DNA of 63,822 bases, the filler included, from a bacterium (GTDB lineage Bacteria; JBBIVP01): NCBI GenBank assembly GCA_037439705.1. It is 6 parts of 6 records of this genome, joined end to end, with 100 filler letters (N's around TTAATTAATTAA, not from the genome) between each part and the next. Parts side by side here need not be neighbours in the genome. Positions count along the whole stretch, not along the records: positions 54,997 to 63,822 come from JBBIVP010000084.1; 5 more parts are not named here. One strand, 5' to 3'. Each line of letters begins with the position of its first letter. The stretch's first letter is position 1. Positions 2,867 to 63,822 of this stretch are shown here, piece after piece. The notes under the pieces are model-generated. The model was not told the DNA's origin, did no database searches, and saw only the letters and a list, made by a program, of their open reading frames with translations. Both the position numbers and the translations under genes were made by a program.

Positions 2867-5223
2867 GACCGCACCTCTTTTATTTTAATTTTCACACTAT
2901 TTATCATTGTAACCATTTTTTCCAGTAAATTCCCAATTTCTGATATTTTAAGGTCAATGGTAGCAAATGAATTTTTTATTTCTTCAAGTTTCCCCTGATA
3001 CTTTTCACCCTTCTCATTTACCTTACTTACAAACGATATCTGGTCATTGAGTAAGTTCTGCGAGGTTATTATAAACTCAAGCGCTTTCTCCATAAGAGAT
3101 GTAGAGTTTTTAAGGTATTCCACATATTTTTCATAAGAATCAATTGAAGCAAAAACTTCCTCAATTGAGCTTATAGATTCACCAAGGTCTGAGCAAAAAG
3201 CAAAAATTTTGTCTGAAAATTTGCTTGCTTCTTTTACTGATTTATCAACCTTTTCAATTTCAGATGCAAGAAGCGACAATTTCTCACTTATATAATCACA
3301 ATCCTTTGCGAAGGTTTCAGTAAATTTGTTTATCTCCGCCATTTTATCCACCGAATTTTCTATGAATCTCTGCAATTCAGAAACTATCTCGTTTATCTCT
3401 CCTGTTGACATCTCTGTCCTTTCAGCCAGTTCCTTGATTTCCTCTGCTACTACCGCAAAGCTTTTTCCCTTCTCTCCAGCCTGAGCAGCTATTATTGATG
3501 CATTCAGAGAAAGGAGATTTGTTTCCTCTATAATTTCCTTTATCACCTTTGCTATTTCCCCTATTTTTTCTGAATCACCCTTAACATTTTCAATTGAACT
3601 TGCTATCCATTTTATCTCCATAGCGAATTTCTCCATCACCTCTTTTGATTCTACTATTTTTAAATCAAGGGAATGAAGAAGACTTTTCACTTTCGAAATG
3701 TTTTCTGATGTTTTCTTATATATACTTGGAGTCTCCTTAATCTCCTTTATCCCATAAGAATCCTCCCTCAAATTGTCAATCCTTTTTAAGAAATCGGAAC
3801 TCTTCAACTTTTTCAAATCCTTCATGAAAGAGGAAAATTCCTTTTCTTCTTTTAAAGAGCGTTGTAAGAGTTTTATAATTTCTTCTGAAATCTCCTTGTT
3901 CTTCAACCCAGCAACCATTTTTGTTTCTTCCTCTCCAGTGGTGAAAAAATCTTTTGTTTCGTTGAGAAAACTGCGAAGAGATGCAATATCTGACCTCTCA
4001 CTTTCAATACGCTTTTTTATATCTGAAATTGTTTCCTCAAAAAATGGGAGATTGTCCTCAATAGATTTTATTGATTCCATAAGTTGTAAAAACCTTTTTT
4101 CCGCAACCTCCGCTTTTTCCTTCATCTCTTTTGTTTTGTCACCAAAATTTTCAGTGAATTTAAGAAGTGCAAAGAATATTTGATTAAACTCGTCATCCGA
4201 TGGAACAGGTGCTTCATTTTTTTGAAGAAAATTCTTCATATCCTCCATAGAACCCTTTAAATCCCTTATTACCAGGTAAGGAATTGAAATAAGTATGCAA
4301 AGGGAAAATATGCCGAGAAGCCAGATAGTTCTGTTCCAGGGCTCAGGATACATCACAAGGTTTTTCCAGGAATAAACAAGGCTTTCAATTTTTCCTTCAT
4401 CTGCTTTCTCAAACACAAATATGTTCATTGTAGAAGGGTCTATGTAAATTTTCTTTCCTTTCCTTGATAACTCAACAATCCTTTCCTCTATTCTTCCCTT
4501 TACATCCCCCGGGTCAATGGTAATTTTTCCACCTATAACCTCTGAGCTCCCCGTTTTTATAAATGAAAGTTCCTTCTCTCCTACCTTTTTTAAAACCCCA
4601 CTTATAAGGTCGTCTCTCATCCTCAAAGAGAGTATTATTATCAGGATAAATGTTATAACTATAGAGATAACAAACGGAAGAATTACCTTGAGTGTAAAGG
4701 AAAAGGAGAGAAAACTTTCATAGGATTTATACTCAATTTTCAATTCCTTCAAAAATTTTCTTATCCTGTCTTTATAAAAATAATACATTAAAAGGGGAGC
4801 GAAAAATCCTCCGCATATCCCAAGAAAAAATGCTTCAATGCTATTAACAAGTGAAAAACCGAAAAACAGGTAAAATATTATGGTACAGAGGAAAACACCA
4901 AGCACCCAGCACCAGAAGGCTAAAAAGGAAAATCGGAATGGAATTGCCACTATCCTTTCAACCTTTCGGATTTTATCTTCTCCTTCCGCCCCATCAATGC
5001 CCTCTATCTCATTTTTCAGTTCTTTCAAGGTGAAAAATATGTAGGCTGTAAGAAATCCGAGAGATACAAGTCCAGCAACCAATAAGAAGTAAATCCGCTG
5101 TTCAGCTGTCATTCTTATTATGAGCGAAAGGTAAAACTCAATCATGATAAGGATTAGAAAAGTGATTATAGTGGATATAAGAAGAAAATCCCTGTAAACA
5201 TTTCTTTTTGTTTCTTCGCTCAT
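2863..5223 (-). CDS. Multi-TM, divergent methyl-accepting chemotaxis protein
   Basis: [37 protein letters not shown] tip; about 6 hydrophobic segments in N-terminal part. Confidence 0.9.
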
Positions 5224-5726
5224 TCTTTATCCCCTTTCTTTATAATTTCTGAAATCCTTTTCATATCCGTTATTTCCTTTTCTGTAAAAAGCCTTTCCAT
5301 ATCAAGAACGAATACTACCTTTGAATTGATCTTGAAAATGCCCTGAAAAATCTCTCCTCCGCTTTCCTTTAAAAGTAAAGGTGCGCTTCTAACCTTTCCC
5401 TTCTCTATCCTTATTACATCTTTAACCTCATCTGCAATAAAACCGGCGAGCCTCCCTTTTATTGAGACAATAAGGATTCTCGCTCGCTTTGGTGGATTAA
5501 AGGATGGAAGCCCGAGTTTCCTCCTCACATCAAGGATTGGAATAAGCGTTCCCCTCAGATCAATGAGCCCTGATATGAAAGGAGGTGGATTGGGAATGGA
5601 GGATACTTCAGCCATATTTGTTATCTCTTTCACCTGAAATATATTTATTCCGAATAATTCCTCTCCTATGCTGAACAGGACGAATGAAAGGAACTGTTCG
5701 GGAGAAATTTTTTCTTCTTTCTTCAT
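5220..5726 (-). CDS. cheW: Chemotaxis coupling protein CheW
   Basis: FGINIFQVKEI...IPNPPPFISGLIDLRGTLIPILD; ATG 5726 overlaps upstream TGA. Confidence 0.93.
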   Translation of the reverse strand: MKKEEKISPEQFLSFVLFSIGEELFGINIFQVKEITNMAEVSSIPNPPPFISGLIDLRGTLIPILDVRRKLGLPSFNPPKRARILIVSIKGRLAGFIADEVKDVIRIEKGKVRSAPLLLKESGGEIFQGIFKINSKVVFVLDMERLFTEKEITDMKRISEIIKKGDKE

Positions 5727-6400
5727 CACTCCTCACTCACTATTTTCTCAAGGTTAAGAACCGCAATAAACTCGTTGTCTATGTGAACAAAATAGGATAT
5801 GTAATCCCTGTTTATATTTCCCATAGTGGGAGGAGGAACTTCAAGTTTTGACTTAAAAATCCTCATTACATCTTTTATAGAATCAACACAGAAACCGAAC
5901 TGCTTCCCGCCAATCTCAACGAGGACAAATCGGGCATCCGGCGACTTATTCTCCGTTCCATCTGAAATGCCAAGTATCTTTTTTATATCAATTATTGGAA
6001 CAATAACCCCTCTCAAGGAAATAATTCCAAGCACATGAGGGGGAGCAGATGGAATTTCGGTAATAGATTTTGGTTTTATTACCTCTTTTAATTCCTCAAG
6101 AGGAAGGGCATAATTTTCCCCTGAAATGGAGAAAACGAGATAATCAAGTTTTTCCTCAAGCACCTCCTCAGCAAAAGCGTGCCTCAGCTCTTCTTCAGCG
6201 AGTTCAAGAAACCCGGCCTCCTCCTCTTTCTTCTCCTCTTCAATGATCACATAAGATTTTTCTTCAATTATCGGTTTTTGAGAAATCTCCTTTTCCATCT
6301 CCACTTTTTCCTTTATCTCAAAAACTGGAGGCTCTTCCACCTTTACTTCCTCTTTTTTCTTCAGTTTCTTTGCCTTCTCTCTTGCTTTCAGTATATCCAC
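5726..6400 (-). CDS. cheW: CheW with charged N-terminal extension
   Basis: YALPLEELKEVI...IPSAPPHVLGIISLRGVIVPIIDI. Confidence 0.93.
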   Translation of the reverse strand: MDILKAREKAKKLKKKEEVKVEEPPVFEIKEKVEMEKEISQKPIIEEKSYVIIEEEKKEEEAGFLELAEEELRHAFAEEVLEEKLDYLVFSISGENYALPLEELKEVIKPKSITEIPSAPPHVLGIISLRGVIVPIIDIKKILGISDGTENKSPDARFVLVEIGGKQFGFCVDSIKDVMRIFKSKLEVPPPTMGNINRDYISYFVHIDNEFIAVLNLEKIVSEE

Positions 6401-11046: not shown

Positions 11047-11146
11047 NNNNNNNNNNNNNNNNNNNNNNNNNNNNNNNNNNNNNNNNNNNNTTAATTAATT
11101 AANNNNNNNNNNNNNNNNNNNNNNNNNNNNNNNNNNNNNNNNNNNN
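11047..11146. other. Artificial contig linker
   Basis: N44-TTAATTAATTAA-N44. Confidence 0.99.
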
Positions 11147-22124: not shown

Positions 22125-22224
22125 NNNNNNNNNNNNNNNNNNNNNNNNNNNNNNNNNNNNNNNNNNNNTTAATTAATTAANNNNNNNNNNNNNNNNNNNN
22201 NNNNNNNNNNNNNNNNNNNNNNNN
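22125..22224. other. Artificial contig linker
   Basis: N44-TTAATTAATTAA-N44. Confidence 0.99.
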
Positions 22225-28942: not shown

Positions 28943-29305
28943 TTATTTTTGGGAATCCGTTTTCAACCTTCTTGCAAAATCAATCATAGTTTTTAAAATG
29001 ACCTCAGCATTTTCTTTGGGAAGTGAACTCAACTCATTTATCAATTCTTTTACTAAACATGAGAGTCTGATATTTCCATTTCCTGACAAAAGCCAATCAA
29101 GGGTAAAATTCGTTCTTGAAATGGTATGTATAAATTCTTCTANNNNNNNNNNTATTTTTTTTATCTTACTTTTCTTCCATTTTTTTATAAATTCTTCTAC
29201 TTCTTCTTTCAGAAGAAACTCCTCAACCTTCTCAAACATCCACTCTTCCATAAAAGACTTCGCATGCTTGAGCTTTTTGAGGATCTCTTCTTTCTTCGGT
29301 TTCAT
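28943..29305 (-). CDS. Hypothetical protein with phage-repressor-like LDWLLSGNG motif, spans a 10-N gap
   Basis: SD GGAGGT upstream; gap 29143-29152 makes length and frame uncertain. Confidence 0.45.
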   Translation of the reverse strand: MKPKKEEILKKLKHAKSFMEEWMFEKVEEFLLKEEVEEFIKKWKKSKIKKIXXXXEEFIHTISRTNFTLDWLLSGNGNIRLSCLVKELINELSSLPKENAEVILKTMIDFARRLKTDSQK

Positions 29306-33193: not shown

Positions 33194-33293
33194 NNNNNNN
33201 NNNNNNNNNNNNNNNNNNNNNNNNNNNNNNNNNNNNNTTAATTAATTAANNNNNNNNNNNNNNNNNNNNNNNNNNNNNNNNNNNNNNNNNNNN
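33194..33293. other. Artificial contig linker
   Basis: N44-TTAATTAATTAA-N44. Confidence 0.99.
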
Positions 33294-44251: not shown

Positions 44252-44351
44252 NNNNNNNNNNNNNNNNNNNNNNNNNNNNNNNNNNNNNNNNNNNNTTAAT
44301 TAATTAANNNNNNNNNNNNNNNNNNNNNNNNNNNNNNNNNNNNNNNNNNNN
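44252..44351. other. Artificial contig linker
   Basis: N44-TTAATTAATTAA-N44. Confidence 0.99.
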
Positions 44352-54896: not shown

Positions 54897-54996
54897 NNNN
54901 NNNNNNNNNNNNNNNNNNNNNNNNNNNNNNNNNNNNNNNNTTAATTAATTAANNNNNNNNNNNNNNNNNNNNNNNNNNNNNNNNNNNNNNNNNNNN
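54897..54996. other. Artificial contig linker
   Basis: N44-TTAATTAATTAA-N44. Confidence 0.99.
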
Positions 54997-55342
54997 AAGG
55001 GATTTGTTTCATCTCTCACTCCTTAATGTCGCTCATATCTTAACTTTTCCACCCCCCCTTGTTCAAAAAATTTCAACAAAAAACACTTTTCTCTTAGTAA
55101 TGATATACATATTGTTCTACAAAAACCCGCTTGGAAAAACCTTCTTTAGAAAAACAGATTACCATTTTGAAAAATCAGAACCTATCCCCACTTCAAAAAT
55201 AGCTCAAAAATAGTATCCACGGGGTAAATTTTATAGAAGAGGGAGTGAAAGAATGTTTATAGATAATATATTGGGTATTATTCCATAAAAATCCCACATT
55301 TTTTGGATACACATTTTAAATCCTTTTCATAAAATTCTCTTT

Positions 55343-55699
55343 ATGGAAGAGAAAGAAGTTTTGGAACAACTTGGAGAAAGGAGAAAGAAACTGAGGAAGG
55401 AAAGAGGATGGTCTCAGGAAATTCTCGCAGATTTCACAGGATATCACTGGAAGACAATAAGTTTGCTTGAGTGCGGAAAGTTAAACCCATCGTTCATTTT
55501 TCTGTGGAGAATAGCAAAAGCATTTAACATCTCAGTAGCAGATTTATTTCCTGAAATATCTCAATCAATTATACCTCCTTTGCATCATAAAGAACTCTCT
55601 GCTGTTTTTACTACTGACATTGTCATGGATAGTTCTGAGGAGGAAGTAAACCATCTTCTAACAATTTTAAAATCCCTGAAAAAACTCAGAAAGAGATAA
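55343..55699 (+). CDS. XRE/Cro-CI family HTH regulator
   Basis: LGERRKKLRKERGWSQEILA...ISLLECGKLNPS...IAKAFNISVADLF. Confidence 0.9.
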   Translation: MEEKEVLEQLGERRKKLRKERGWSQEILADFTGYHWKTISLLECGKLNPSFIFLWRIAKAFNISVADLFPEISQSIIPPLHHKELSAVFTTDIVMDSSEEEVNHLLTILKSLKKLRKR

Positions 55700-55771
55700 C
55701 AACTTCCTTCCTCACGAGACTTCTTTATTCCATGGTTGTATATTCATATAGAGGAGGTGTGCGCCGCTATG

Positions 55772-55799
55772 TTGACAATTTGTGAATTTTTGGTATATT
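55772..55799 (+). promoter_or_regulatory. Near-consensus sigma-70 promoter
   Basis: TTGACA-N16-TATATT with extended TG; no long ORF downstream. Confidence 0.65.
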
Positions 55800-55807
55800 C
55801 ATTTTCA

Positions 55808-55970
55808 GTAAGAGAGCATATAACCATCAAAGCTGGTAATTCGGAACTTTGAGCCCGAAAATGCTTAATCGGAGGTGTTATAGGAGGGAGGAGCCATTGT
55901 TCTGACCCTGAGGGTGGAAAATCCCCCTTTTGTCTTGCCTTGATGGTCTCCCCGCTACTTTCTCTCTTAC
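55808..55970. ncRNA. Candidate structured ncRNA abutting IS110 remnant (strand unresolved)
   Basis: Nested inverted repeats 55808-16/55962-70 (9 bp) and 55823-33/55937-47 (11 bp); alternative two-hairpin junction 55815-55865 with complementary loops. Confidence 0.5.
55911..55936 (+). terminator. Possible intrinsic terminator
   Basis: AGGGTGGA-AAA-TCCCCCT followed by TTTGTCTT. Confidence 0.35.
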
Positions 55971-56313
55971 CAAATTCCAGCAAAGAACATCGCCTCCCTC
56001 AAAGCCGGATTTCCCCTCTTTGAAATATGCGATTTACTTCTTGCCTTCCCGGATTGATAAAAAACCAAGTTTAGCCCCATGAATTTCAAAACCTCATTTA
56101 GGGATTGAAAAGTGCCCTCCATCCCGCTTCTCTCCTTCCATTTCCTTATTTCTTCTAAAAGACTTCTGAATCCCTCCCCATCGTTTGAAAAATTGAGTGG
56201 ACCATACCTACTACCATCGGGAGTAAGTCCAACTGCAGTGTGCCTTTCTCCCTACGCTCAAACCCCACAACCAATACCTTCTCATGGTATAACTTTTCCA
56301 TCTTTCACCTCCT
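55967..56313 (-). mobile_element. IS110-family transposase remnant (frameshifted, large internal deletion)
   Basis: SD AGGAGGTG + ATG 56301; VLVVGFE../ERHTAVG...FSNDGEGFRSLL fused to FQSLNEVLKFMGL...YQSGK...HISKRGNPALREAMFFA. Confidence 0.85.
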
Positions 56314-56343
56314 GATTTTTTCTATAACAATAACATAAATATA

Positions 56344-57108
56344 TCATGAATTAATATATGGCATTCTGACCCCAAAACCTTGTTTTATTCCAGTATATAC
56401 AATCGCTATTCCTCCTGTTAATGCTCTTGAATCCATCACCCTTATGCCTGCTCTTTCAAGAAGCCTTATAACTTCATCTTTTTTCATAAAACCCCTGATT
56501 GATGAGGAAAGGTATTCGTAGGCTCCTTTTGAACCCGATACAATCCCTCCTATAAACGGCAGAATTTTACCAAGGTAAACGGAATATAAGAGTGAAAAAA
56601 TTCTATTTTCTGGCATAGAAAACTCAAGGATGATTAATTTCCCCCCTCTTTTTAAAACCCGAACTATCTCCGAAATTCCTGTCTCATAGGAAGAAAAATT
56701 TCGCAAACCGAACCCGATGGTAATCAGGTCAAATACCCCGTCCTTAAAAGGAAGAGACAAGGCATTCCCTTTTATAAGGAAAAAGTTATCTGTGATTTTT
56801 CTTTTTTCTGCCTTCTTCCCTGCTAATCTGAGCATTTTCTCAGAAAGGTCAACCCCAAAAACCCTGTGTCCCATGGCTCTCAATACGATTGCAAGGTCTC
56901 CTGTTCCGGTGCAAAGGTCAAGGACCGTAAGAATTTCCGGAGAATTTACAAGTTTGAAAACCGTTCTCCGCCACTTTCTGTCAAAATTTAAACTTAAAAG
57001 ATGATTTAAAAAATCGTATTTATGAGCAATGGATGAAAACATTCTTTCAATCTCCTCTGGTGCGGGATTTTGCTTACCTTTTAATTTTTCCTGGCAATAT
57101 AAATTCAT
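56344..57108 (-). CDS. menG: Demethylmenaquinone/ubiquinone methyltransferase
   Basis: MFSSIAHKYDFLNHLLS, VLDLCTGTGD, GFGLRN, ILEFS, AYEYL. Confidence 0.92.
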   Translation of the reverse strand: MNLYCQEKLKGKQNPAPEEIERMFSSIAHKYDFLNHLLSLNFDRKWRRTVFKLVNSPEILTVLDLCTGTGDLAIVLRAMGHRVFGVDLSEKMLRLAGKKAEKRKITDNFFLIKGNALSLPFKDGVFDLITIGFGLRNFSSYETGISEIVRVLKRGGKLIILEFSMPENRIFSLLYSVYLGKILPFIGGIVSGSKGAYEYLSSSIRGFMKKDEVIRLLERAGIRVMDSRALTGGIAIVYTGIKQGFGVRMPYINS

Positions 57109-58000
57109 ACCTTTTTCTTAGAAGGTTCATTTTAAAAAATCTGTGGGTTTTCCTCAAAAACTGAAACAGGCTCCAGATGAAGGCGTCTCTTTTGTAATAG
57201 GATTTTACTTCTTCAAATGTTATCTTTTTATCAAGAACCCTGTTAGCCACATCTAAAACCTTATATATAATTTCCGGAACACCTTCTTTGAAAAGGTTTG
57301 CAATAAGGTCTGTGACTACGAGACGAAAATCGTAATATCTGTCAAGAATTTCCTGAAGAAATATGTATCTTACAATTATGTTTAAAATGGGTGGAACGCT
57401 TTTTAAAAACAGTCCCGCTTTGAGCATTTCCTCACCGTTTTTCCTGTAAAGGGGAGTTGAAACATCAAAATAAAGCAGATTTATATCCTCCCTTTCCGAA
57501 TCCTCCACTATCCAGTTAGAAATCTGTCCGTCAATCCCCACCTTTATATTCTCACTCCTCTCGTTGAATTCCTTCACTTTTTTCAGCTCGTAGATTACCC
57601 GTTCAAAAACCTCTATTGCCCTTTTTTCATCCAGACCCTTTATAAAGAAATTTCCGATTTTTGATTGCGGAAATTCCCTCTGAACCACATAATAAACAAT
57701 CCTTCCATCCGAAGTTTTAATTTTTACTCCCCCTGTATCAATTACACTTATTCCCACATTCCTTAGAACTTCTATGTATTCTTTTAAAATTCTTTCGTAC
57801 TCATCAGCCTCCTCCTCGCAAGAAAAAATTGGAAGCCTTTTAAAAGCAAGGGAATGAAAGGCCGGATGGTCTATCAGAAAGACCGTGCTTATTTCTCCAT
57901 AACCGATAATCCTCGCCGGCATCTTACTTTTTTCTGGATATCTGGTATTTATTCCTTCCTCAAATTTTCTTAAAACTTCCTCATCTACCTCAAATCTCAT
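57074..58000 (-). CDS. DUF6206-like protein (possible kinase fold)
   Basis: IGYGEISTVF, AFKRLP, GIDGQISNW, YFDVSTP. Confidence 0.6.
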   Translation of the reverse strand: MRFEVDEEVLRKFEEGINTRYPEKSKMPARIIGYGEISTVFLIDHPAFHSLAFKRLPIFSCEEEADEYERILKEYIEVLRNVGISVIDTGGVKIKTSDGRIVYYVVQREFPQSKIGNFFIKGLDEKRAIEVFERVIYELKKVKEFNERSENIKVGIDGQISNWIVEDSEREDINLLYFDVSTPLYRKNGEEMLKAGLFLKSVPPILNIIVRYIFLQEILDRYYDFRLVVTDLIANLFKEGVPEIIYKVLDVANRVLDKKITFEEVKSYYKRDAFIWSLFQFLRKTHRFFKMNLLRKRYEFILPGKIKR

Positions 58001-59328
58001 TTCAGAAATCCCTTCACCCCATCAAAGGCTTTTCTGATTTTCTCCCTGATATAACCTAATGCAAGCCCGGTCTGAAATTTTCCTGTCCTTGCAAGAGAAA
58101 AGGCTTTATCAAGCCTTCTTATTACTTCCATTGCTTCTTCCTCTTTTATTATGAGGGGTGGAAGAAACTGAAGAACTGACGGATCATTATTTGCGTATAT
58201 ACATAAGAGTCCGGATTCATAGCACGCCTTTGTCATCATCATACCCCAGGTTTGGTCCTTCATTTTAATTCCCATCATCATTCCGAGCTGTCTGATGGAA
58301 AGGATTATGTCCGAATTCCTTTCCTTCAATGCATTTAGTTCCCTCTTAAAAAACTCGGCAACTTTATTTACATGCTGAAAAAATTCAGGTGAAGATGAAA
58401 TTTCAAGAACCTTCATCGCCACCACACATCCGGGCTCTGCTCCCCCAAAAGTTGAAACATGAATAAACGGGTCTTTATGAAAAACCCTTTCAAGATGGGT
58501 TCTGAAAGAGGTGGCGGTGATGGGATAAATTCCACCGCTCAATCCCTTTCCCGTGACAATTATATCAGGAACAACTCCGAAATGTTCTATACCCCAGAGC
58601 TTTCCAGTTCTTCCAAGCCCTGTCTGAATCTCATCAATAATCATCAATGCTCCCTTTCTGTCACATATCTCCCTTACTCCCTTGAAAAAATTTTTATCAG
58701 GAACATAAATGCCCAGAGTGGCGGGAACGGTTTCAAAAATCACAGCAGCGGTTTCTGAATCCACAGCCCTTTCAAGGCTTTCAAGGTCGTTAAAGGGAAC
58801 CTGATAAAACCCGGGAGCAAGTGGTTCAAATGGTTTTTTATACTTCTCATCTCCTGTGGCAAGGGCAAAACCAGTATGTCCATGATACCCTCCTTTTGCA
58901 GAAATTATTTTGTGCCTCCTCGTATATGCTCTCGCAATTTTTATCGCCAGGTCAATTGCCTCTCCTCCGCTCACCCCAAAAACCGTATAACTTATGTCGC
59001 CGGGCATAAGCTCTGCCATCTTTCTGGCAAGCAATGCCCTGAACTGGCTTATGAGGTGATGATTTCCTATATCAATTTCTTCATGAGCTTCTTCAAGCGC
59101 CCTTATTATTTCCTGATTTCTGTGTCCCAGATTGAAAACCCCTCCATTGCAGTGACAGTTGATCAATTCTTTTCCTGTTTCCATATCCCACACATATACT
59201 CCCTCCCTTTTTCCAAAAACAAAATCCATATCAAAGGATGTAAAGACCCTTGCTTTTCCAGAAGATACATGATTTCTGAAAAGCTCTATTATTTTCTCTT
59301 TGGAAATTTTATCCCTTCCTGAATGCAT
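57997..59328 (-). CDS. Class III PLP-dependent aminotransferase
   Basis: SGGEAID, GYHG, IDEIQTGLGRTG, PDIIVTGKGLSGG, STFGG. Confidence 0.93.
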   Translation of the reverse strand: MHSGRDKISKEKIIELFRNHVSSGKARVFTSFDMDFVFGKREGVYVWDMETGKELINCHCNGGVFNLGHRNQEIIRALEEAHEEIDIGNHHLISQFRALLARKMAELMPGDISYTVFGVSGGEAIDLAIKIARAYTRRHKIISAKGGYHGHTGFALATGDEKYKKPFEPLAPGFYQVPFNDLESLERAVDSETAAVIFETVPATLGIYVPDKNFFKGVREICDRKGALMIIDEIQTGLGRTGKLWGIEHFGVVPDIIVTGKGLSGGIYPITATSFRTHLERVFHKDPFIHVSTFGGAEPGCVVAMKVLEISSSPEFFQHVNKVAEFFKRELNALKERNSDIILSIRQLGMMMGIKMKDQTWGMMMTKACYESGLLCIYANNDPSVLQFLPPLIIKEEEAMEVIRRLDKAFSLARTGKFQTGLALGYIREKIRKAFDGVKGFLK

Positions 59329-59454
59329 TTTTTTAAATTATAGATTTTGAAAATTTCTCTGTCAAATGACCAATTTAAATTTTTTTAAAATTACAAAAAG
59401 GAGTTCAAACATTAAATTGCGAAATGTTGAAAGACTTGTTTTTAATTTTTTAGA

Positions 59455-60717
59455 ATGGTAAATAAGTTTTTTATGATGGTAAGATATATAAACGGAATTC
59501 TTCATTTAGAAGAGGTTGACCTTTCTTTCATTGCAAAGAAATTCGGAACTCCGCTTTATATTTATAGCGAAAATGGAATAAGGGAGAGAATAAGGAGCCT
59601 TAAGAAGGCATTCGGGAAAAGCCTTTATTTTGTTGCTTATGCTGTAAAGGCCAATTCAAATATGGGAATTTTAAAGGTAGTAAAGGATGAGGGATGTGGT
59701 GCTGAGGTTGTTTCAGGAGGAGAGCTCTACAGGGCGCTTCTTGCAGGAATCAGTCCGAAAAAAATTCTTTTTACCGGTGTTGGTAAAACAGGTGATGAAA
59801 TCAAGTATGCCATAAAAAATAGCATCTTTTCTATTGTGTGCGAGAGTGAGGAGGAGTTAAGGATTATAGAGGAGATTGCAAAAAAACTTAAAAAGAAAGT
59901 AAAAATTATGTTGAGGGTTAATCCTGATATTGACCCGAAGACCCATCCATATATTGCAACGGGTCTGAAAAATTCCAAATTCGGGATTCCTGAAGAGATT
60001 GCGTATTCTCTGTATAAAAATGTGGCAAGGAGCAAATTTCTTCAGCCAGCAGGAATACACTTTCACATAGGTTCACAGATCACCATTCCTGAACCATTTT
60101 ATGAGGCGGCAAAAAAGATAAAAGCTCTTTTGATGAAACTTGAAAATGAGGGAATAAAACTGGAATTTGTTGATGTAGGAGGAGGTATTGGAATTCAGTA
60201 TAAAGATGGAGAAACCGGGCTTTCTTTAGAGGCTTACAGTTCTGCTATCAAAGAGGGACTAAAAGGGCTTGATGTAAAAATAATCGTTGAACCCGGAAGG
60301 TTCCTCGTTGGTAACAATGGGATTCTGCTGGGAAGGGTTATTTATGTGAAGGATAATAAAACAAAGAAATTTCTTGTTACCGATATAGGAATGAATGACC
60401 TTATAAGACCCTCATTATACAATTCTTTTCATAGAATACTTCCTGTTGAAGAAAAGAAGAACGGGCAATTATATAAATTTGATGTGGTTGGACCTATCTG
60501 CGAATCCGGTGATTTTATTGCGAAAGAAAGGGAAATGCCCGAGATAAGGAATGGAGAGTTTATAGCAGTTCTTGATACAGGGGCATATGGATTTTCAATG
60601 TCATCAAATTATAATTCGCGCCCCAGAGCGGCTGAAGTGCTGGTGAGTGGAAAGAAGTGGAAAATTTTAAGGAAGAGGGAGAATTATAAAAGTCTGGTGA
60701 GGGGAGAGGTTTTTTAA
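59455..60717 (+). CDS. lysA: Diaminopimelate decarboxylase
   Basis: YAVKANSN, SKFG, HFHIGSQ, EPGR, GPICESGD, GAYG..MSSNYN; start may be 59473. Confidence 0.97.
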   Translation: MVNKFFMMVRYINGILHLEEVDLSFIAKKFGTPLYIYSENGIRERIRSLKKAFGKSLYFVAYAVKANSNMGILKVVKDEGCGAEVVSGGELYRALLAGISPKKILFTGVGKTGDEIKYAIKNSIFSIVCESEEELRIIEEIAKKLKKKVKIMLRVNPDIDPKTHPYIATGLKNSKFGIPEEIAYSLYKNVARSKFLQPAGIHFHIGSQITIPEPFYEAAKKIKALLMKLENEGIKLEFVDVGGGIGIQYKDGETGLSLEAYSSAIKEGLKGLDVKIIVEPGRFLVGNNGILLGRVIYVKDNKTKKFLVTDIGMNDLIRPSLYNSFHRILPVEEKKNGQLYKFDVVGPICESGDFIAKEREMPEIRNGEFIAVLDTGAYGFSMSSNYNSRPRAAEVLVSGKKWKILRKRENYKSLVRGEVF

Positions 60718-61788
60718 ATGTCCTTGAGGGAATGGATTGCTTTAAGTTTGATAGATGGAGTGGGTCCCATAACCTTTAAGAAAATTCTTGAAAAAGGCTT
60801 GAAACCGGAGACAATTTTTTCGCTTTCAAAAAAGGAACTTGAAGGAACTGGACTTTTAAGGGAGAACCCCATTGAGGTTATAATAAAAAAAGAAACCCTG
60901 CTCATGGCTGAAAAGATAATAGAAATCTCGGAAAAGAACAGAATAAAAATTCTCACGGTTGAATCTCCCTCATATCCCCTTCTTCTTAAACATATTCCTG
61001 ACCCACCTCCTGTTCTTTATGTAATGGGAGATATGAAACCGGATGAAAGGTGTGTAGGGGTAGTGGGTACAAGAACACCCACCGAATATGGAAAAATGGT
61101 GGCTGAAAAGATTGCCTTTCTTCTTGCATTGAACGGTGTGACTCCTGTAAGCGGAATGGCTTACGGAATTGATAGTATAGTGCATTCTTCAGCCATGAAT
61201 GGAGGTGGAAGAACAATTGCGGTTCTCGGTTCAGGTTTAATGAGGATATATCCTCCGGAACACAAAAACCTTTTCAGAAGAATATGTGAAAACGGATGCG
61301 CTCTTTCAGAGTATCCACTATATGAAGAGCCCCATATTTCACATTTTCCTCAAAGGAATAGAATCATTTCTGGCATTTCGTCCGCTGTTATTATTGTTGA
61401 AGCGGGCGAAAAAAGTGGTGCTCTGATAACAGCAAAATTTGCGCTCGAGCAGGGAAGGGAGGTATTCGCAGTGCCAGGAAACATAACCTCTGCAATGAGC
61501 AGGGGGACAAATAAGTTGATAAAAGAGGGAGCAACTCCCTTCACAAGTTTTGAAGACCTTTCCGAGGTTCTCGGTCAGCCTCTTCTTAATTTAAGTTCCA
61601 CTAAAGATTTTCTGACCGAGAGCGAGTCCTTGCTTTTGAAATTCATAAAAAATGGAGAGGTATTTTATCCTGAAGATTTGCTATTTCTTTCACAGGAGAA
61701 GGGAACTAATGTATATGAAGTCCTTACATCCCTTGAATTAAAGGGAATTATAAAAAGGACAGAGGGAGGTGGTTTTATTAAGGGATGA
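60718..61788 (+). CDS. dprA: DNA-processing protein DprA/Smf
   Basis: VVGTR, SGMAYGID, FPQRNRIISG, VEAGEKSGALIT, VFAVPG. Confidence 0.96.
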   Translation: MSLREWIALSLIDGVGPITFKKILEKGLKPETIFSLSKKELEGTGLLRENPIEVIIKKETLLMAEKIIEISEKNRIKILTVESPSYPLLLKHIPDPPPVLYVMGDMKPDERCVGVVGTRTPTEYGKMVAEKIAFLLALNGVTPVSGMAYGIDSIVHSSAMNGGGRTIAVLGSGLMRIYPPEHKNLFRRICENGCALSEYPLYEEPHISHFPQRNRIISGISSAVIIVEAGEKSGALITAKFALEQGREVFAVPGNITSAMSRGTNKLIKEGATPFTSFEDLSEVLGQPLLNLSSTKDFLTESESLLLKFIKNGEVFYPEDLLFLSQEKGTNVYEVLTSLELKGIIKRTEGGGFIKG

Positions 61789-63822
61789 AACTTGTTATAG
61801 TTGAATCACCTGCCAAAGCAAAAACTATAAAGAGATTTCTTTGAAAGGATTTTGAAGTTATTGCTTCTTACGGGCATATAAAAGACCTTCCAAAGTCCCG
61901 TCTGGGAGTAAAGATAGAGGAAGGATTTGAGCCAGAGTATCAGACTATTCCAGCAAGGAGAGCGAGAATAAAGGAAATGAAGGAGAAGTCATATAATGCT
62001 GAAATTGTATTTCTTGCTTCAGACCCTGATAGAGAAGGAGAGGCAATAGCCTGGCATATAGCAGAAGAGATAATGGATTCAAAGGTTATAAAAAGGGCAG
62101 TTTTTCACGAGATTACCGAAAAAGGCGTAAAAGAGGGTATAAATAATCCGAGAGAACTTGACGAAAATCTGTATAATGCCCAAAAAGCAAGAAGGGTGCT
62201 TGACAGGCTTGTGGGTTATAAAATTTCTCCGCTTCTTTGGGATAAAGTAAAGAGAGGGATTTCTGCGGGAAGGGTTCAGTCTGTGGCGCTTAAATTTGTG
62301 GTGGAAAGGGAGAAGGAAATAGAAGCTTTTGTCCCGAAGGAGTACTGGACAATTACTGTATTTTTTGAAAAGGACGGTAAAAGGTTTTCTGCGGAGCTAA
62401 GGACAAAAGACCCGATTTCCGATGAAGCAGCTTCAAAGAAAATCGTTGAGGAGATAAATGATAAAGAGTTTATCGTTAAAGAGGTAACAAAAAAGGAAAG
62501 AAGGGTGAATCCCCCACCTCCTTACATTACGAGCACCCTTCAGCAGGATGCATTCAAAAAACTTGGTTTTTCGGCGGAGAGAACGATGAGGGTCGCTCAG
62601 AACCTTTATGAAGGAGTTGATGCAGGTCCTTATGGAAGACTTGGTCTTATTACATACATGAGAACAGATTCTGTAAGGATAGCGGAAGAGGCAATAGAAA
62701 GGGTAAGGCAGGTGATAGAAAATGAATTCGGCAGGGATTATCTTCCTGATAAAGCGAGAATTTACAGGAACAAGGAGTCCGCACAGGATGCCCATGAGGC
62801 AATAAGACCTGCAGATGTTAAAATAACGCCATCATCTATAAAGGAATATATTTCAAAAGATGAAGGTAAACTTTATGAGATCATATGGAGAAGGTTTCTG
62901 GCATGCCAGATGAATCCTGCAGTATATGAAATAATTATCGCTGAACTTGTATGTGGAGATTATGTGTTTAAGGCATCGGGTTCAAGGCTTTTATTTGATG
63001 GTTTTAAAAAGGTTTATGAGGAGGAAAGGGAAGAGGGGGAAGATGGAGCAGGAATTCTTCCAGTTTTGGAAGAGGGGGAGGTTTTAAAACCTGTAGAAAT
63101 AAAGCCGGAACAGCACTGGACGAAGCCTCCTCCAAGGTATAACGAAAGCAGTCTCATTAAAGAGCTTGAAGAAAAGGGAATAGGAAGACCCTCAACCTAC
63201 GCTACAATAATTTCAACTCTGAAGAAAAGGGGTTATGTAAAAGTAGAGAATGGAAGGTTCCATCCCACTGCCCTCGGAACTCTTGTCTGTGAAATCCTCC
63301 TTCAGCATTTTGCGGAGATAATGGATACAAATTTTACTGCGAGGATGGAAAGACAACTTGACCTGATAGAAAGGGGAGAAGAGGAATGGAGAAAGACAGT
63401 TTCCAGTTTTTATTCTTTACTTAAAGAGTATCTCCGTAATGCAGAGAAAGACATAGAAAACTATAAGGGTAAGGGAATAAAGACAGAACTTAAATGCCCT
63501 CTTTGTGGAGGGGAAACATATATAAAGATGGGAAAGAATGGAGAATTCATTGCTTGCGGAAATTATCCCGCCTGTAATTTTTCTTCCAATTTCAAAAAGG
63601 AAAAGGATGGAAAAATTGTCCTTCTATCAGATGAAATTATAGAGGGCAGTTGTCCTCAATGCGGGTCACCGCTTTCTGTAAAGCGGACAAAAAAGGGGTT
63701 GAGGTTTATTGCCTGTTCCTCATATCCAGTCTGTAAGTGGACTTCTTCATACAAAATCGGTGAAAAGTGTCCCTCCTGCGGGGCAGAGCTCGTGGAAAGG
63801 ATTTCAAAAAAAGGGAAAATTT
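61785..63822 (+). CDS. topA: DNA topoisomerase I, truncated by window edge
   Basis: Not in ORF track; MKLVIVESPAKAKTI, ASDPDREGEAI, SAGRVQS, ITYMRTDS, GIGRPSTY, C-terminal Zn ribbons CPLC, CPQC, CPSC. Confidence 0.97.

Follow-up and report, generated by a model that had tools for sequence, protein, structure and literature searches.

The stretch between about 55733 and 56369 (minus strand) of the window, by which we mean the whole 63,822-nucleotide stretch of DNA that was analysed, is most likely a dead, non-autonomous IS110-family element. On balance, and with only modest confidence, we think that unrelated DNA has replaced the 3′ end of its transposase gene and that the element's own inward promoter lies alongside this DNA. 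Comparison of sequences establishes the anatomy of the remnant, the lack of detectable homology of the replacing segment and the conservation of the predicted promoter in one relative. The sequence-only reading had proposed a structured RNA at this place, possibly a bridge RNA or seekRNA, with a convergent antisense transcript. Every motif that it named occurs in the sequence, several of them in a less marked form than stated.

Anatomy of the element

The window consists of contigs chained by N runs with TTAATTAATTAA linkers, and the candidate lies on the last contig, 54998-63822. On this contig the ubiE/menG gene (minus strand) and a helix-turn-helix (HTH) gene (plus strand) are convergent with about 640 bp between them, and the following features were assigned:

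56344-57108, minus strand: ubiE/menG methyltransferase gene (Pfam PF01209, E 1.4e-60)
56302-56369, minus strand: left non-coding end of the element with SD AGGAGGTG (three-way alignment; blastn 74% identity over 56117-56369)
56117-56301, minus strand: transposase fragment, residues 1-62 of the protein P0001, with a frameshift and two in-frame stops (tblastn)
55973-56110, minus strand: transposase fragment, residues 306-351 of P0001, part of Transposase_20 (tblastn, 72% identity)
55808-55970, no strand assigned: candidate segment, 163 bp, 47% G+C, bounded by a perfect 9-bp inverted repeat
55735-55812, minus strand: right non-coding end common to the related locus L002 (1946 to ~2067 there), outer boundary tentative (local alignment)
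55343-55699, plus strand: XRE-type HTH gene converging on the element (Pfam HTH_3, E 1.3e-9)

The final codons of ubiE run into the left end of the element, and this copy of ubiE is 11 residues longer (QGFGVRMPYINS) than its relatives (n = 6, 64-67% identity), which end one residue past G-x-K. In a three-way alignment of the window with the related loci L001 and L002, the flanks diverge upstream of (T)CAGAA(T/A)GC, and since three different flanks diverge at one point, the left end was placed at 56369. The ATG of the transposase gene is at 56301, with a left end of only ~67 nt upstream of it. As part of the account that we favour on balance, the element would have entered ubiE two or three codons short of its end. 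We infer a right boundary at AAC|CA, with the CA core at 55733-34, a position that would restore the ubiE stop codon; the pre-insertion ubiE would then finish ...GIKQGFGVME-stop. The other end weighed for the right side of the element was 55765 (ATAG). The 9-mer TTTATTCCA, which flanks both sides of the element, was considered as a target duplication and rejected, the ubiE gene reconstructed in this way having no stop codon.

When a 94-residue reading frame was compared with longer proteins, 2 of the 138 candidates were P0001 (408 aa) and P0002 (406 aa), both of which carry PF01548 and PF02371. These domains are found in the nearest full-length proteins, and the window keeps fragments of both regions. 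The tblastn comparison with P0001 places residues 1-15 at 56301-56257. Residues 12-62 lie in a different frame, at 56269-56117, where the translation includes 'CGV*A*GERHTAVG'. Residues 306-351 follow at 56110-55973, and then TAA at 55967-55969. Relative to the 408 residues of P0001, residues 63-305 are deleted and residues 352-408 are also absent. The minus-strand ORF at 55967-56122 matches Pfam PF02371 Transposase_20 (E 2.1e-9) at profile positions 27-71 of 87. The suggestion that a non-autonomous IS110-family element forms the context is thus borne out by the Pfam match and the tblastn fragments. The placing of the candidate at the '3′ end of an IS110 transposase' holds as to this context, but the gene is a remnant that stops at residue 351 of 408, and the segment replaces its last 57 codons.

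The continuity of the DNA was examined in public sequencing runs; no RNA run was listed among those containing the stretch. In the DNA run X1, 11% of the sampled words were present, and two short X1 contigs were placed on 55000-57300, at 55827-56021 and 56903-57077, with none from X2 and X3. The first of these is a 196-nt contig that covers its interval with 1 difference; the run looks independent but may be the source sample. Since a contig of this independent-looking run crosses 55970, the junction there was not created by assembly. Neither joints nor an empty site were seen in the run contigs placed on 55000-57300.

Close relatives of the element

A metagenome scan gave at least two close loci, L001 and L002, among the matches listed. 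L001 ends with its contig, at residue 93. L002 is a separate deletion derivative in which residues 1-66 are fused out of frame to residues 348-408, and its sequence continues for 460 nt past the stop codon. It is the only close relative with a readable 3′ end among the matches listed, and it is itself a deletion derivative. No more than 5 nt separate the L002 stop codon (1943-1945) from a right-end block, GAATTATATCAAAAATCCACACACTATCAAC; in L002, and in P0001 as judged by its C-terminus, this block comes directly after the stop codon.

Local alignment of the right-end block at 55806-55771 with L002 1951-1982 gave a score of 30, compared to 20.3 ± 2.4 (maximum 28) for 100 shuffles; GAATTATATCAAAAATCCACACACTATCAAC itself aligns with 55800-55770 on the minus strand. 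The similarity further out, at CACACCTCCTCTATATGAATATA, scored 23, which was equalled by 22 of 2000 shuffles, and the right end shared by the window and L002 extends from ~55812 to ~55740, with ~80-120 nt traceable. Consensus structure prediction for this common right end returned 0 pairs, and the right end of L002 folds no better than its shuffles (z -0.24). The window copy (residues 1-62 and 306-351) and L002 (residues 1-66 and 348-408) are two independent internal-deletion derivatives, and the ends are kept in both, as expected of elements mobilised in trans.

A segment without detectable homology in the place of the last codons

The segment stands where codons 352-408 would be expected. 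The distance from residue 351 (55973) to the right-end block is 160-172 nt; the equivalent interval of L002 is 179 nt long and coding. In global alignment with L002 codons 352-408, the segment gave z -0.3 on the same strand and +1.7 when reversed, while the N-terminal control gave z 30. In addition, tblastn in six frames found no match in the segment, and a C-terminal profile (60-80 residues, eight relatives) scored it at no more than 1.0 bit. By the alignment z, the tblastn search and the profile, the segment was rejected as decayed C-terminal coding sequence in either orientation. It was likewise rejected as inverted nearby DNA, the best matches elsewhere in the window being at most 34 nt long with E at least 0.41.

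The inverted repeat of the segment coincides exactly with the borders of the foreign DNA, and its plus-strand flanks read CA|...|CA, matching the dinucleotide of the putative ends of the element, which is weak evidence. The G+C content of the segment is in the top 2.4% of 163-nt windows, a value that counts against the account given above, and the coding fragments of the element are close to it at 42-45%.

The segment was searched for in several collections. The 63.8-kb window holds no second copy, the plasmid and phage collections gave none, and the viral contigs held no exact 26-mer of it. A 79-residue ORF across the segment matched no Pfam family and had no relative among 5.8 billion proteins at near lengths. 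The 401 + 401 sampled genomes of two phyla yielded two weak DNA matches only (G132 and G516), both around the SD/start region, and the G132 match, at a locus without a transposase, was discarded. With Rfam 15 at E <=10, the region 54998-57200 returned chance-level rows only, the best overlapping one being SSRC8_1 with 18.2 bits, where the gathering score is 80; at the gathering threshold, the whole window returned one tRNA only. Known RNAs such as 6S, riboswitches and the CsrB/RsmZ type were thus not recognised, with no Rfam family matching in the segment.

Inverted repeats and folding of the segment

In the outer repeat, GTAAGAGAG (55808-55816) pairs with CTCTCTTAC (55962-55970) over 9 bp without a mismatch; the inner repeat consists of ACCATCAAAGC at 55823-33 and GCCTTGATGGT at 55937-47, which are complementary at 10 of 11 positions. 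The one mismatch of the inner repeat, A.C on the plus strand, becomes G.U on the minus strand. Dinucleotide shuffles had a longest inverted repeat of at least 9 in 39 of 300 cases, and a repeat of at least 9 with a nested perfect repeat of at least 8 in 2 of 300, the latter being a post hoc test. The nested stems that had been described, one of them as fully paired through G-U only on the minus strand, are present, but the outer 9-bp repeat alone is not unusual. The nested repeat is unusual and lies exactly at the foreign borders, which counts against the account given above.

The folding energy of 55772-55985 is ordinary, with z -0.75 on the plus strand (38 of 200 shuffles as good) and z -1.24 on the minus strand (21/200). 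Trimmed to the repeat, the values become z -1.85 on the plus strand (23/400) and -2.26 on the minus strand (10/400); this trimming is biased, the boundaries having been chosen at the repeat and post hoc. Better pairing of the minus-strand stems, with a trimmed z of -2.26, would not be expected of filler and counts against it. The plus transcript folds like its shuffles (z -1.07, 55/400).

The loops TCAAAG (55827) and CTTTGA (55847), which had been read as kissing loops, form a plain 6-bp inverted repeat that becomes a simple hairpin in the minimum-energy fold. For the terminator proposed at 55911-55936, one further feature was read from the sequence:

55911-55940, plus strand: weak terminator-like hairpin (AGGG-u-GGA AAA UCC CCCU) then UUUGUCUU

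A bulged 7-bp hairpin followed by TTTTGTCTT is there, but the hairpin is absent from the minimum-energy fold of the plus transcript and was not called by the terminator scan, which found 0 sites in 55000-56500. The GGA-rich tract is also present, at ~55871-55895. Its four GGA motifs stand in a single purine tract and not in repeated hairpin loops, and the minus strand has CCUCC repeats at this place. Binding of CsrA, which had been offered as an alternative role, is without support, with four GGA in one tract and no Rfam match.

The predicted inward promoter

At the right end of the element, a promoter was predicted from its sequence:

55772-55799, plus strand: predicted sigma-70-type promoter TTGACA-16-TGgTATATT, 11/12 matches with TG before the -10, predicted start ~55806

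This promoter is the strongest feature of the region. It belongs to the right-end block and is directed into the element, against the transposase gene. The 63.8 kb contain 4 sites with at least 11 of 12 matches on both strands, and this is the only one with TG; the shuffle means are 1.8 and 0.15, respectively. A 12/12 site at 59365 is found just upstream of a gene start at 59328, which suggests that the organism uses such promoters. L002 has a homologous site, TTGATA-16-TGaTATAAT (11/12 with TG, 1981 to 1954, same relative strand), whose -10 ends 9 nt from the stop codon and which reads into sequence unrelated to the segment. The near-consensus plus-strand promoter convergent with the transposase gene was therefore correctly recognised, and it has a homologous site in L002.

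From these features, the predicted promoter looks like the element's own inward, antisense promoter, and we infer both its activity and its antisense role. The promoter block was available in two sequences only, and its identity between the window and L002 (25/31) does not clearly exceed the 74% found elsewhere in the element; its conservation is therefore no proof of function. The inward promoter-like sites of distant relatives are weak, with 9/12 matches only, an observation that counts against the account of an inward promoter belonging to the element.

RNA-OUT of IS10 is an antisense small RNA of an insertion sequence. Antisense small RNAs are also described for the IS110 family, namely Asr9 of ISPpu9 and Asr10 of ISPpu10 (PMC12288879). 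The remnant resembles all of these in having a strong predicted promoter inside the element, directed against the transposase gene. Asr9 and Asr10 are described as lying upstream of tnp and overlapping the 5′ UTR and the bridge RNA (PMC12288879), whereas in the window the predicted promoter is at the 3′ end. If it is active, an IS110-family transposase gene would be under antisense control from its 3′ end, in contrast to the 5′ antisense RNAs of ISPpu9 and ISPpu10.

Comparison with guide RNAs of the IS110 family

As described for the family, elements of the IS1111 type have their non-coding region downstream of the transposase gene and in the same transcription direction, and those of the IS110 type have it upstream (PMC11187229, PMC11208160, PMC12288879). 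A genome scan gave 13 loci with 26-38% identity to P0001, from which two element types were delimited by means of multiple copies. In the L007 type, the element spans 2876-4571 and the ORF 2974-4257, which leaves 98 nt on the left and 314 nt on the right; in the L004 type, the element spans 2881-4527 and the ORF 2959-4233, which leaves 78 nt on the left and 294 nt on the right. The window copy is like IS1111-type elements in its pieces of both transposase domains, its short left end (67 nt) and its non-coding DNA downstream. The relatives with 26-38% identity (left ends 78-98 nt, right ends 294-314 nt) have a conserved RNA in the right end. The window copy differs from IS1111-type elements in being dead, with two deletions, stops and a frameshift.

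The right ends of the distant relatives contain conserved blocks and a fold with compensatory changes at 12 of 43 predicted pairs (alignment A5) and 7 of 16 (A6), and this conserved RNA is presumably their bridge RNA. A search by nhmmer with A5 found it in the loci L014 (E 1.4e-11) and L016 (E 2.4e-11) and had no match in the segment or in L002. Covariance models R1 (170 positions) and R2 (first stem-loop, 73 positions) were run with filters off against the window, L001 and L002, and R1 also against L013 and L015. With R1 and R2, no match to the minus strand of the segment was obtained at E <=10, and the single overlapping row was on the plus strand, at 9.1 bits and E 3.5. The likeness by eye of GCGGGGAG...AAGGCAAGAC...GCTCCTCCC to the first stem-loop of the relatives was unsupported by R2.

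Homology of the right-end block with the right-end termini of the distant relatives was also considered and is unsupported, with 141-967 of 1000 shuffles scoring as high. The window and L002 are still similar past the putative end (22 of 2000 shuffles), which counts against such homology. Had it held, the segment would have stood in the place of the relatives' guide RNA.

When the segment was aligned locally with the element ends, left and right, from the window, L001 and L002, the best score was equalled by 70 of 500, 94 of 1000 and 25 of 1554 controls. Complementarity of the segment to the element ends or flanks was at chance level, the right boundary of the element being tentative. A comparison of the loops with element ends or insertion targets had been suggested as a check, and the alignment scores of the segment are at chance level. 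The start of the segment on the plus strand was compared with left ends in an anchored test, in which 25 of 1554 background windows scored as high for L001, 146 for L002 and 623 for the element's own end; a left-end-like start was set aside as weak by this test. The 9-mer GGGTCAGAA (55908-55900) equals the left flank-end junction sequence. Guides as described in PMC11208158 do not span a post-insertion junction, and handshake guides are given there as 1-2 nt. The recombinase that would be the partner in cis is not intact, with residues 1-62 and 306-351, stops and a frameshift.

The reading of the segment as a bridge RNA or seekRNA is unsupported by these comparisons, in which neither nhmmer nor the covariance models matched it. 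The segment is absent from the 3′ end of L002, the sole close relative with a readable 3′ end among the matches listed, and the expected presence downstream of homologous transposases was thus not found. That the segment is a guide RNA of this element family is not supported, which is weaker than a full refutation. Since L002 is a deletion derivative and a full-length copy could differ, the refutation of the guide-RNA reading is incomplete. In a full-length copy, additional non-coding DNA might separate the stop codon from the block, which also counts against the account that we favour.

Known systems offer several likenesses. Bridge RNAs and seekRNAs (Durrant et al. 2024, PMC11208160; Siddiquee et al. 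2024, PMC11187229) are described inside IS110-family elements, and the segment shares with them its position inside such an element and downstream of the transposase; its ~160 nt are in the range of long seekRNAs (ISEc11, 154 nt; PMC11187229). It differs from them in that it is not conserved in L002, matches no model, has insignificant complementarity and sits in a coding place. The ssr9 module (A′-B′ boxes) of ISPpu9 is similarly a small discrete segment with its own promoter beside a truncated transposase fragment (PMC12288879). As described, ssr9 has several copies and end boxes common to its element, whereas the segment was found in a single copy and has no significant similarity to the ends.

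Proposed account and alternatives

In the account that we narrowly favour, an IS110-family element would have inserted near the end of ubiE and retained its left end, some of its right end and, of the transposase, residues 1-62 and 306-351, and foreign or filler DNA (55808-55970) would have taken the place of the last 57 codons. In intact copies, the RNA made from the inward promoter would be complementary to the transposase mRNA at its 3′ end and may act as a brake on copy number or on the transposase, as in other insertion sequences. In the remnant, the promoter probably still fires, giving a transcript of the plus strand of the foreign segment that perhaps ends at ~55940; for this transcript, the sequence points to no demonstrated function.

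It is unlikely that the segment is a small mobile module, MITE-like or ssr9-like, whose insertion was accompanied by loss of the neighbouring 3′ end of the transposase gene. Such a module might show terminal inverted repeats, here 9 bp and perfect, precisely where the foreign DNA begins and ends, and plus-strand flanks that read CA|...|CA, as at the putative element ends; ISPpu9 is described as having small-RNA modules that moved separately, one of them with a truncated tnp 3′ fragment (PMC12288879). However, the matching dinucleotide is weak evidence, the arrangement is a replacement and not a clean insertion, and the plus-strand start resembles left ends only weakly, with 25, 146 and 623 of 1554 background windows scoring as high; moreover, no second copy was found in the 63.8-kb window, in the plasmid, phage and viral collections or in the 401 + 401 genomes of two phyla, and the spanning ORF has no predicted-protein relatives. 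Somewhat less probable, in our judgement, is a plus-strand transcript that works as a trans-acting small RNA, for example one that binds CsrA or is otherwise regulatory, made from the promoter at 55772 and ended by the hairpin at ~55925. The strong promoter, the hairpin with a U-run ~130 nt downstream and the four GGA motifs in 55871-55895 would fit such an RNA. Yet the promoter was supplied by the element, its counterpart in L002 faces unrelated sequence, the scan did not call the hairpin as a terminator, and the GGA motifs form one purine tract rather than repeated hairpin loops; the transcript also folds as its shuffles do (z -1.07, 55/400), and no homologues and no Rfam match in the segment at any threshold were found.

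We think it very improbable that the minus strand of the segment encodes a bridge RNA or seekRNA, retained or captured by the non-autonomous element and used in trans by a full-length copy. Its position inside the element and downstream of the transposase remnant, its stems that pair better on the transposase strand and the identity of GGGTCAGAA with the left flank-end junction can be cited for this, and the short left and long right ends of the distant relatives, with a structured RNA after the stop codon, fit the IS1111-type layout as described (PMC11187229, PMC11208160). Against it, the segment is absent from the 3′ end of L002, the closest relative among the matches listed, and stands upstream of the shared right-end block in the place of coding sequence; nhmmer, R1 and R2 gave no minus-strand match at E <=10, the segment is no more similar to the left and right ends than chance would give, the guides described in PMC11208158 span no post-insertion junction, and there is no intact recombinase in cis. 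The least probable combination that we considered is a portable, ssr9-like small-RNA or guide cassette that was captured by the element and mobilised or guiding in trans, with the inward promoter giving an antisense regulator. If the segment were a guide cassette, guide RNAs would travel apart from their recombinase.

Under the preferred account of a dead remnant, the result is mostly ordinary, a decayed insertion sequence with an unexplained piece of DNA inside. Two observations are mildly useful, namely that this type of element gives rise to independent derivatives with internal deletions and that both derivatives keep a very strong inward predicted promoter right after the position of the transposase stop codon.

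Insertion point and deletion derivatives of the element

The ubiE/menG frame (minus strand, 56344-56392) continues into the left end of the IS110-family remnant and carries an extra 11-residue tail, QGFGVRMPYINS. In the 6 relatives of ubiE/menG that were compared, the terminus lies one residue past G-x-K. Judged from the sequence, the insertion point of the element is two or three codons ahead of the original ubiE/menG stop. The exact 9-mer TTTATTCCA flanks the element on each side (55724-55732 and 56384-56392), and another exact 9-mer, TTCTGACCC, is found within the 163-bp candidate RNA segment (55900-55908) and at the left junction (56364-56372); both repeats are no more than chance expectation for 700 nt. 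Neither repeat fits the role of a target duplication or that of a guide.

A second, independent internal-deletion derivative of the same type as the window element is present in the close metagenome relative L002 (1491-2067). It comprises residues 1-66 and 348-408 of the 408-aa transposase, out of frame, and both element ends are retained. Since this independently deleted copy still has both ends, the family of the window element and L002 seems, from these sequences, to repeatedly yield miniature non-autonomous copies.

Right-end RNA of distant relatives

In more distant IS110-family relatives from Bacillota and Actinomycetota, a conserved structured RNA lies right behind the transposase stop codon, in right ends of 294-314 nt. 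It was located at the following loci:

L007 4258-4571 and L004 4234-4527, and copies: conserved right-end RNA region of Bacillota/Actinomycetota relatives
L014 4289-4467 and L016 3955-4071, and copies: conserved RNA at the corresponding place

The right-end RNA, presumably the bridge RNA of these relatives, shows compensatory base pairs; the covariance models R1 and R2 were derived from it. It is absent from Rfam 15, with 0 matches at E values up to 0.1 in L002, L004, L006 and L007. In L004, an Actinomycetota MAG contig, an IS110-family element occurs as two copies in direct tandem (2881-4527 and 4525-6174), and the junction bases are common to both.

Make-up of the window and promoters

Runs of N around TTAATTAATTAA linkers were found at 11047-11146, 22125-22224, 33194-33293, 44252-44351 and 54897-54996, and also at 29143-29152. 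The window is a series of separate contigs of ~11 kb, and thus features on either side of a gap are not genomic neighbours. Positions 1-230 have the highest G+C of the whole window (55-61%); this region gave no match in Rfam and no tandem repeat call, and it resembles low-complexity coding sequence with many GGA/GGT/GGG repeats.

A putative 27-codon ORF, MLTICEFLVYSFSVREHITIKAGNSEL (55769-55852, plus strand), has a strong SD sequence, GGAGGTG, 9 nt ahead of its ATG. Because its start precedes the -35 element of the plus-strand promoter, the ORF would be readable only via read-through from the HTH gene. Elsewhere, a 12/12 sigma-70 consensus promoter (TTGACA-17-TATAAT, 59365 to 59337, minus strand) closely precedes a class-III aminotransferase gene with its start at 59328.
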